A DNA stretch of 44,739 nucleotides from a virus (taxonomy: Duplodnaviria > Heunggongvirae > Uroviricota > Caudoviricetes): the IMG/VR virus record IMGVR_UViG_647533158_000005; one strand, written 5' to 3'. Made by a program: the position numbers and the translations under genes. The notes beneath the pieces are model-generated. The model worked only from the letters and a program-made list of their open reading frames with translations. It was not told the origin of the DNA and did no database searches. This document shows positions 10,703 through 11,452 of the stretch, piece after piece. The first letter of the stretch is position 1, and each line of letters opens with the position of its first letter.

Positions 10703-11050
10703 ATGTATATGTCTTTATTCTTAACAAGTTTTATCTTTAAAAAAAAAGAGTATGACGAAGAGTTTTACCAGCTTGATGCGTTAATAGAAAAACATACTCA
10801 GTCCATTGACGGTTATATCGGGATGGAGACTTATACAGATGCTGCCAGTGATAAAATTATTAATACGTATTACTGGAAAAGTCGTGAAGCAATGGATTTG
10901 ATGATAAATGATTTACAACACCGACAGGCAAAAGAAAAAAGTCATAAATGGCTGTCCGGGTATCAGACGATTATTGCTGAAATTAAGGGGTGCCATAATG
11001 TAAATATACAACATCCACTTGCTTCATATTTCATACCATGGAATGAATGA
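10703..11050 (+). CDS. Small ABM/Dabb-fold-like protein
   Basis: 115-aa ORF directly after the B3/4 gene; hydrophobic beta-strand start and size consistent with an antibiotic-biosynthesis-monooxygenase-like fold; AT-rich. Confidence 0.4.
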   Translation: MYMSLFLTSFIFKKKEYDEEFYQLDALIEKHTQSIDGYIGMETYTDAASDKIINTYYWKSREAMDLMINDLQHRQAKEKSHKWLSGYQTIIAEIKGCHNVNIQHPLASYFIPWNE

Positions 11051-11239
11051 AGTGAGAAAGTTCAGAGGCCTACTGATGCGAATAAAAATAGTTTGCGGGA
11101 AAAGGCGAGTTAAGTAGAATTGCTGCGGGTGCTTGAGGCTATCTGCCTCGGGCATGAACACCAAAAGGCAGATAGAGAAAAGCCCCAGTTAACATTACGC
11201 GTCCTGCAAGACGCTTAACATTAATCTGAGGCTCAATCC

Positions 11240-11452
11240 GTGCTGAACACATGTAGGTTAGCCTCTTACGTGCCGAAAGGCAAGGAGAAGCAGGCTATGA
11301 AGCAGCAAAAGGCGATGTTAGTCGCCCTGATCGTCATCTGTTTAACCGTCATTGTTACGGCACTGATAATGAGGAAAGACCTCTGCGAGGTACGAATCCG
11401 AACCGGCCAGACGGAGGTCGCTGTCTTCACAGCTTACGAACCTGAGGAGTAA
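11240..11452 (+). CDS. mok-like overlapping reading frame of hok locus
   Basis: 70-aa ORF that contains the hok frame in phase with an N-terminal extension, as expected for the mok translational-coupling frame. Confidence 0.4.
   Translation: MLNTCRLASYVPKGKEKQAMKQQKAMLVALIVICLTVIVTALIMRKDLCEVRIRTGQTEVAVFTAYEPEE
11297..11452 (+). CDS. hok: Hok/Gef-family type I toxin (membrane peptide)
   Basis: 51-aa product MKQQKAMLVALIVICLTVIVTALIMRKDLCEVRIRTGQTEVAVFTAYEPEE is near-identical to HokD/RelF; upstream inverted repeats typical of hok mRNA fold-back elements. Confidence 0.88.
   Translation: MKQQKAMLVALIVICLTVIVTALIMRKDLCEVRIRTGQTEVAVFTAYEPEE

Follow-up and report, generated by a model that had tools for sequence, protein, structure and literature searches.

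At positions 11093-11548 of a 44,739-nucleotide (nt) stretch of tailed-phage DNA (Caudoviricetes; IMG/VR record IMGVR_UViG_647533158_000005), referred to hereafter as the window, lie a gene for a toxin of the Hok family, a longer overlapping frame termed mok and, on the opposite strand, a putative gene for an antisense RNA, Sok. We conclude with high confidence that these features make up a complete type I toxin-antitoxin module, hok/mok/sok, belonging to the HokD/HokW lineage and carried as accessory cargo by a lambdoid prophage. The module is known biology, having been annotated in the record of phage 933W, tested in Sakai prophage 5 (Sp5), and surveyed across genomes and prophages. An earlier note, made from the sequence of the window, had proposed a hok/sok-type locus as prophage cargo, and this proposal is upheld by Pfam and Rfam matches, by homology to sokW and mokW, and by the lambdoid flanking genes; what the note had seen in the sequence is no product of chance. 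The limits given there, 11050-11452, need revision at both ends: they begin some 40-75 nt ahead of the module and end at the hok stop codon, about 96 nt short of the end of the locus, and so leave out the fold-back inhibition (fbi) element (11495-11517) and the terminator (to about 11548). What is established here, for each sequence element of the module, is that it is present, intact and conserved and has the potential to pair.

Most Escherichia coli genomes contain the module. By megablast it is found in 4726 of 5426 complete ones, where it is annotated as hokD and present in up to ten copies (median two); some plasmids have it as well, as do 79 phage records, in which it is called MokW, HokD, gef or host killer protein. 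Identity of the hok module in the window to any record is at most 95-97%. From 134 fetched loci we obtained 99 distinct full modules, from Escherichia, Shigella, Kluyvera, Pseudocitrobacter and Pantoea, and the conservation values given below refer to this set.

The hok gene itself (11297-11452, +) starts at ATG 11297 and encodes a protein of 51 residues, MKQQKAMLVALIVICLTVIVTALIMRKDLCEVRIRTGQTEVAVFTAYEPEE, with an N-terminal membrane helix, Cys30 and Tyr47. Its Shine-Dalgarno sequence, AGGAG (11283-11287, +), lies 9 nt upstream of the ATG and is 99% conserved across the relatives. Against the Pfam family HOK_GEF (PF01848) the protein scores 80.1 bits (cut-off 22, E 8.8e-23). It is near-identical to HokD (RelF), as the earlier note had recognised, sharing 48 of 51 residues with K-12 HokD (WP_000813254.1), from which it differs by I9V, V24I and T25M; with HokW of 933W it shares 44 of 51. 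Near-identity to WP_000813254.1 places it in the HokD subgroup. As a separate observation, the Tyr47 codon, TAC, stands within the tetranucleotide TACG (11435-11438, +) in a predicted hairpin loop. TACG is the adenosine-to-inosine editing motif of TadA, which is reported to recode the equivalent tyrosine to cysteine in hokC, hokD and hokE (PMC5630033), and the Hok protein of the window may therefore gain a second cysteine, at the RNA level only, by TadA editing.

The placing of the hok frame inside a longer, mok-like frame, also seen by the earlier note, is correct. The mok frame (11240-11452, +) runs for 70 codons from a GTG, in frame with hok and to the common stop codon, and in the alignment its start at 11240 falls where mokW of phage 933W is annotated to begin. 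A Shine-Dalgarno sequence for mok, GAGG (11227-11230, +), lies 9 nt upstream of this start, is 95% conserved among the relatives and forms the base of the Sok-target helix. Counting the window, 83 of the 99 distinct loci have an in-frame mok of 69-70 codons, whereas mok is short or out of frame in the rest. In plasmid R1, translation of Hok depends on translation of mok.

A putative hok promoter spans 11093-11120 (+), with a -35 box TTGCGG (11093-11098), a 16-nt spacer and a -10 box TAGAAT (11115-11120), from which transcription is predicted to start near G11127; it is read from the sequence and not mapped. Its -10 block is conserved at 93%, against 50-62% further upstream, and the predicted start coincides with position 1 of the Rfam family RF01794. 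The predicted full-length hok mRNA (11127-11547, +) would measure about 420 nt, its 5′ end being set by the Rfam start and by homology to the invariant GGGTGCTTGAGG, and its 3′ end by the terminator. Folded without constraints, 11127-11546 reaches -169.4 kcal/mol (z = -6.97 against shuffles), with its first nucleotides paired with the 3′ untranslated region (UTR).

The earlier note had named alignment to Rfam covariance models as a check, and when this was run RF01794, entitled "sok antitoxin", matched 11127-11302 (+) over the full model (1-157) with 116.4 bits, against a gathering score of 59 (E 5.6e-26). Since the match spans the region from the 5′ end of the hok mRNA to slightly beyond the hok AUG (11297-11299), what it marks is the hok leader, which contains the complement of Sok, and not the Sok transcript. 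Two further hits were set aside: a permissive Rfam scan of 10950-11650 returned one extra match, to a snoRNA family, whose 23.7 bits fall below the gathering score of 70 and which was rejected as spurious; and the sole promoter hit of a strict sigma-70 consensus scan, at 11342-11370 inside the hok coding sequence, was rejected as being at chance level (1 found, 0.6 expected).

The leader opens with a hairpin (11127-11186, +), the first helix of the Rfam structure, which holds the elements tac (GGGUGCUUGAGG, 11127-11138) and ucb (AAGCCCC, 11180-11186). Within it lies the inverted repeat ctatctgcc (11139-11147) / ggcagatag (11167-11175), with 10 perfect pairs between 11139-11148 and 11166-11175; the repeat extends further to arms of 21 nt at 76% complementarity. 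The extended inverted repeats that the earlier note described in the leader are therefore real, with up to 10 perfect pairs, but the repeat quoted belongs to this 5′ tac/ucb hairpin and not to the fold-back between the 5′ and 3′ ends of the mRNA. All 99 relatives have tac fully conserved, the tac motif having been the anchor by which the modules were found. Applied to a MAFFT alignment of 50 leaders, RNAalifold recovered the 5′ hairpin, in which two pairs show AU/GC/UA and CG/UA exchanges among relatives; beyond this it found only the base of the Sok-target helix and a portion of one small stem. Insertions and deletions in the region of the Sok terminator spoil the alignment, and pairs were therefore counted instead. 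Across the 5′ hairpin and the Sok-target helix together, 85.9% of cells are paired, against 34-53% when the partners are slid, in a structure that we named ourselves and that includes columns 11/51 and 12/50, which never pair and so lower the percentage. Both helices show compensatory changes among relatives.

The 3′ UTR carries three further elements. The first is a hairpin (11460-11481, +) formed by a perfect 9-bp inverted repeat, GGCGAGGGA / TCCCTCGCC; relatives keep a stem at this site with different sequences, for example GGCGGGGAG...TCCCCGCC. The second is fbi (11495-11517, +), whose sequence complements tac together with the opening bases of the 5′ hairpin: 11124-11132 pairs with 11509-11517 at nine of nine positions and, after one bulged base, 11133-11145 pairs with 11495-11507. 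The duplex between tac and the 3′ UTR is calculated at -26.6 kcal/mol, compared with -18.2 ± 2.4 for shuffled UTRs, and closure of the 5′ end onto fbi is present in the minimum-energy fold of the hok mRNA. The core of fbi is 94% conserved, the surrounding UTR being more variable. The third is an intrinsic terminator (11521-11548, +), a 7-bp stem followed by TTGTTTTTT. In the alignment of the 99 modules, ucb, GCCUCUUAC, both Shine-Dalgarno sequences and the fbi core stand out as highly conserved. An open reading frame (ORF) of 135 codons (11491-11898, +) overlaps fbi and the terminator; only its residues 70-135 match a phage family, phrog_1212, and its homologue in E. coli strain STEC299 is annotated at 279 nt, corresponding to ATG 11620-11898. 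The ORF is probably over-extended. A rem gene, present in K-12, is absent here.

On the minus strand, a Sok-like antisense RNA of 71 nt is predicted at 11178-11248, in which a single-stranded 5′ tail, GUUCAGCACGGAUU, precedes a long terminator hairpin and the 3′ end reads CUUUU. Facing it in the leader are the complement of the Sok terminator hairpin (11185-11228, +), a hairpin with about 16 extra nt relative to the Rfam consensus, and the Sok-target stem-loop sokT (11228-11266, +), whose loop, CUGAACA, includes CUGA, a motif of the YUNR type, and complements the Sok 5′ tail. The stem-loop is the third helix of the Rfam structure, and three of its pairs are changed on both sides among relatives. 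In plasmid R1 the target loop is recognised by the Sok 5′ tail, as Franch et al. reportedly described in 1997 and 1999, and we apply this model to sokT.

The earlier note was right to expect an antisense sok-like RNA, which it held could not be placed exactly from sequence alone; homology now allows this, since by direct alignment the sokW misc_RNA of 933W (AF125520) falls precisely on 11248→11178 (-), with 69 of 71 nt identical. In predicted folds the first 14 nt of both RNAs stay single-stranded as a 5′ tail, a long hairpin comes next and CUUUU ends the molecule. The fold of the window Sok reaches -30 to -31.6 kcal/mol, and the 79-nt stretch 11170-11248 folds with z = -4.7. The putative Sok promoter (11255-11283, -) consists of a -35 box TTGCCT (11283-11278), a 17-nt spacer and a -10 box TAACCT (11260-11255), with the start at 11248, 7 nt downstream. 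This stretch is identical in the window and 933W; in the relatives the -35 box, as inferred from the alignment, is mostly TTGACC. Six hokW-sokW primers and probes published for Sp5, as well as the unmutated part of the mutagenic primer YO-421, match the window with 0-1 mismatch; the bases replaced in YO-421, which makes a promoter-less sokW (PMC8621323), correspond to 11254-11260 and cover the TAACCT box. The sokW northern probe YO-592 matches 11219-11248 with one mismatch, and because this probe has plus-strand sequence the RNA it detects, Sok, is a minus-strand RNA. A cis-encoded Sok with its own promoter, 5′ tail and terminator hairpin is thus predicted at the level of the sequence.

The genes around the module are those of a lambdoid phage. 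PHROGs matches identify an integrase (1-1131, -), an exonuclease (1422-3866, -) and a repressor-like regulator (5918-6337, -), a replication initiator (7194-8276, +), a Q-like antiterminator (12963-13784, +), an endolysin, the large terminase and the tail fibre J. The module sits between the replication genes and Q, co-directional within the early-right (pR) operon. In the E. coli prophage that resembles it most, from strain STEC299, the genes around hok follow one another in the same order, namely a helix-turn-helix (HTH) gene, a B3/4-domain gene, an ABM-like gene, hokD, a hypothetical gene, DUF968, RusA and Q. It is these lambdoid flanking genes and the STEC299 gene order that make the term "prophage cargo" correct. 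A trio of cargo genes lies upstream of hok, encoding an HTH protein (9320-9922, -), a B3/4-domain protein (9966-10661, +) and a weakly matching ABM/monooxygenase-like protein (10703-11050, +).

Among known systems, hokW-mokW-sokW of 933W and Sp5 (AF125520; PMC8621323) has the same architecture, is likewise carried by a lambdoid phage, and shares 94% nt identity over 94% of the module. There too a 70-codon mokW is in frame with hokW, and the leader and fbi are almost identical to those of the window. The two differ at the C-terminus of Hok (TAYEPEE in the window, VDYESEK in HokW), at the mok start (GTG in the window, ATG in mokW), and after fbi, where the window has a K-12-like terminator. The cargo neighbours are also different, the 933W locus lying near the end of the sequence among hypothetical genes. 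The closest protein is encoded by hokD (relF) of the Qin prophage of K-12, which has the same hok Shine-Dalgarno sequence, 3′ UTR, fbi and terminator as the window, and the same downstream neighbours, DUF968/ydfU and a Q-like antiterminator. Homology to K-12 hokD, however, begins only at about 11283; lying directly after relBE, that gene is without the hok promoter, tac, ucb, Sok gene and mok start, all of which the window has, and the position of relBE is filled in the window by the genes for the HTH, B3/4-domain and ABM-like proteins. The hok/sok (parB) locus of plasmid R1 has tac, ucb, a Sok target, mok, fbi and a tailed, hairpin-bearing Sok, each with a counterpart in the window, although its carrier is a plasmid and not a prophage, and the resemblance of its Hok protein is only distant. 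Identity between HokW and R1 Hok is given as 44% (PMC8621323).

For the mechanism we rely on the established paradigm of plasmid R1 and on hokW-sokW of Sp5, the sequence elements being what is seen in the window; transcription, processing, toxicity and a role in the phage life cycle are inferred for this copy by analogy. A weak promoter would yield the stable hok mRNA of about 420 nt, in which tac at the 5′ end would pair with fbi at the 3′ end, so that the full-length RNA would be untranslatable and closed to Sok. Slow trimming of the 3′ end would remove fbi and allow the 5′ end to refold into the tac/ucb hairpin, exposing the mok ribosome-binding site and the Sok-target loop, and translation of Hok would be coupled to that of the overlapping mok frame. 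A strong antisense promoter within the leader would meanwhile supply the unstable 71-nt Sok RNA, whose 5′ tail would bind the target loop over the mok start, block translation of mok and hence of hok, and trigger cleavage by RNase III. Once synthesis of Sok stops, Hok would be made, insert in the inner membrane, and kill or lyse the cell.

What such a switch would do for the phage is suggested by Sp5, where Takada et al. 2021 (PMC8621323) showed hokW-sokW to function as a type I system. In that prophage, sokW vanishes on RecA-dependent induction and HokW appears about 1 h before the endolysin; deletion of the locus delays growth arrest and halves phage release, and is without effect on growth under normal conditions (PMC8621323). 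The best available model, carried over from this homologue, is that Hok may speed lysis and phage release, with prophage stabilisation as an alternative; maintenance of the prophage or exclusion of other phages may also be roles in addition. A module that serves mainly in anti-phage defence by abortive infection, or as an addiction system that stabilises the prophage, and not as a helper of lysis, would be in keeping with the label "prophage maintenance" given to mokW and hokW in the 933W record, with the reported four-fold enrichment of hok in prophages (bioRxiv 10.1101/2025.08.07.668861), and with the lowered plating of phage T4 that a paper citing the original work ascribes to R1 hok/sok. 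We regard such a main function as unlikely: no PADLOC defence model matches Hok, the B3/4-domain protein or the ABM-like protein, generic HTH hits aside, and the only direct experiment on a prophage homologue gave a lysis and release phenotype (PMC8621323). Either role would nevertheless be compatible with a complete hok/mok/sok module as proposed here, because the molecular mechanism is identical.

The position of the module co-directionally inside the pR operon raises the possibility that read-through from this operon on induction could trigger the RecA-dependent loss of Sok, which has been reported for hokW-sokW and left unexplained. Sense transcription would silence the antisense Sok promoter by collision, and the resulting 5′-extended hok transcripts would be unable to form the lock between tac and fbi. 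We offer this as a speculative proposal and consider it distinctly unlikely to be the actual trigger.

Several results weigh against a complete and working module of the HokD/HokW lineage. In the 98 other distinct relatives the mok start is ATG in 97 and ATA in one, so that within this set GTG is confined to the window; likewise, an exact 26-mer at the mok start is found in 85 viral contigs in its ATG version and in none in its GTG version. The exact Hok allele (V9, I24, M25) has no record in an exact-protein look-up. The NCBIfam models for the Hok subfamily and HokA give 45 and 41 bits, under their respective cut-offs of 73 and 89, and no HokD model exists there, so that the HokD name rests on pairwise similarity. 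The strict sigma-70 scan called neither the hok nor the Sok promoter, the former being missed because its -35 box matches at only 3 of 6 positions. Toxicity of Hok, neutralisation by Sok and activation by Sok decay are carried over by analogy from hokW-sokW (PMC8621323) and R1. According to papers citing the original studies, moreover, the chromosomal hok loci of K-12 are inactive, and chromosomal hok loci tested earlier gave no post-segregational killing (Pedersen and Gerdes 1999, as cited).

The unique start codon, the unrecorded allele and the reported inactivity of the K-12 loci could together be taken to mean that the locus is a decaying, non-functional remnant like K-12 hokD, with the GTG as the first sign of decay. 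We judge this very unlikely. The window retains the promoter, tac, ucb, Sok target, Sok promoter, mok, fbi and terminator, with no frameshift or premature stop, unlike K-12 hokD, in which nothing upstream of about 11283 remains. As a start codon GTG is valid, and the A-to-G change leaves the Sok-target helix paired, a G-U wobble replacing A-U; complementarity to Sok is unaffected, because Sok is cis-encoded. The three Hok substitutions are conservative, and LIMRKDLCEV is present in other homologues. By analogy with R1, the GTG may reduce initiation at mok, and hence the output of Hok, without amounting to a disruption.

The idea that the plus-strand Rfam "sok" match is itself the antitoxin RNA, transcribed in the direction of hok, has the family name and the strand of the match on its side but is almost certainly wrong, and was rejected because the match runs from the predicted hok 5′ end past the hok AUG and includes the hok Shine-Dalgarno sequence, because sokW is annotated opposite hokW in 933W, because a published sokW probe of plus-strand sequence detects a minus-strand RNA, and because the promoter, single-stranded tail, and terminator hairpin with its U-tract lie on the minus strand.

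As regards the bacterium that carries the prophage, no complete E. coli genome covers at least 80% of positions 5000-20000 of the window, the best identity being about 92%, and to judge from these values the prophage may come from an Escherichia other than E. coli or from some related enteric bacterium. HokD-type genes with 89-94% protein identity also occur in assemblies labelled Veillonella parvula (a metagenome-assembled genome), Acinetobacter idrijaensis and Xanthomonas pisi (our loci L009, L024 and L032), the latter two on tiny contigs, and a phage labelled as infecting Actinobacillus pleuropneumoniae (PP818812.1) has the module at 95.8% DNA identity. These four occurrences look like contamination or mis-assigned hosts, and not like true spread.

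Elsewhere in the window, the early-left region holds a full-length gene for the DicF small RNA (4512-4563, -; 77 bits), as in Qin-type prophages. To the right of the module, tRNA-Met(CAT) (16329-16404) is followed directly by a tRNA-like gene (16407-16484, +), which scores 45 bits against the Rfam tRNA family and is returned by ARAGORN as "tRNA-???" with a four-base anticodon, tttt, which we take for an anticodon loop of 8 nt, CTTTTTAT; the gene encodes either an expanded-loop tRNA or a phage tRNA of the arg type that has decayed. Downstream of the tRNA genes, and before an ORF of 646 codons (18004-19944), there is a match to the small RNA family STnc100 (17112-17301, +; 102 bits).

The importance of this locus is small beyond the correct annotation of the copy at hand, which can now be annotated precisely, including the Sok RNA, the 3′ fbi element and the terminator that automatic pipelines have missed. 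A further lesson to keep in mind is that a hit to the Rfam "sok" model stands for the hok-sense leader and not for the antisense transcript. As an intact member of the family, the copy illustrates what the truncated hokD of K-12 has lost. If the read-through idea were true, hok/sok would be a built-in, induction-coupled lysis timer of the prophage, with the GTG start of mok tuning its strength down.

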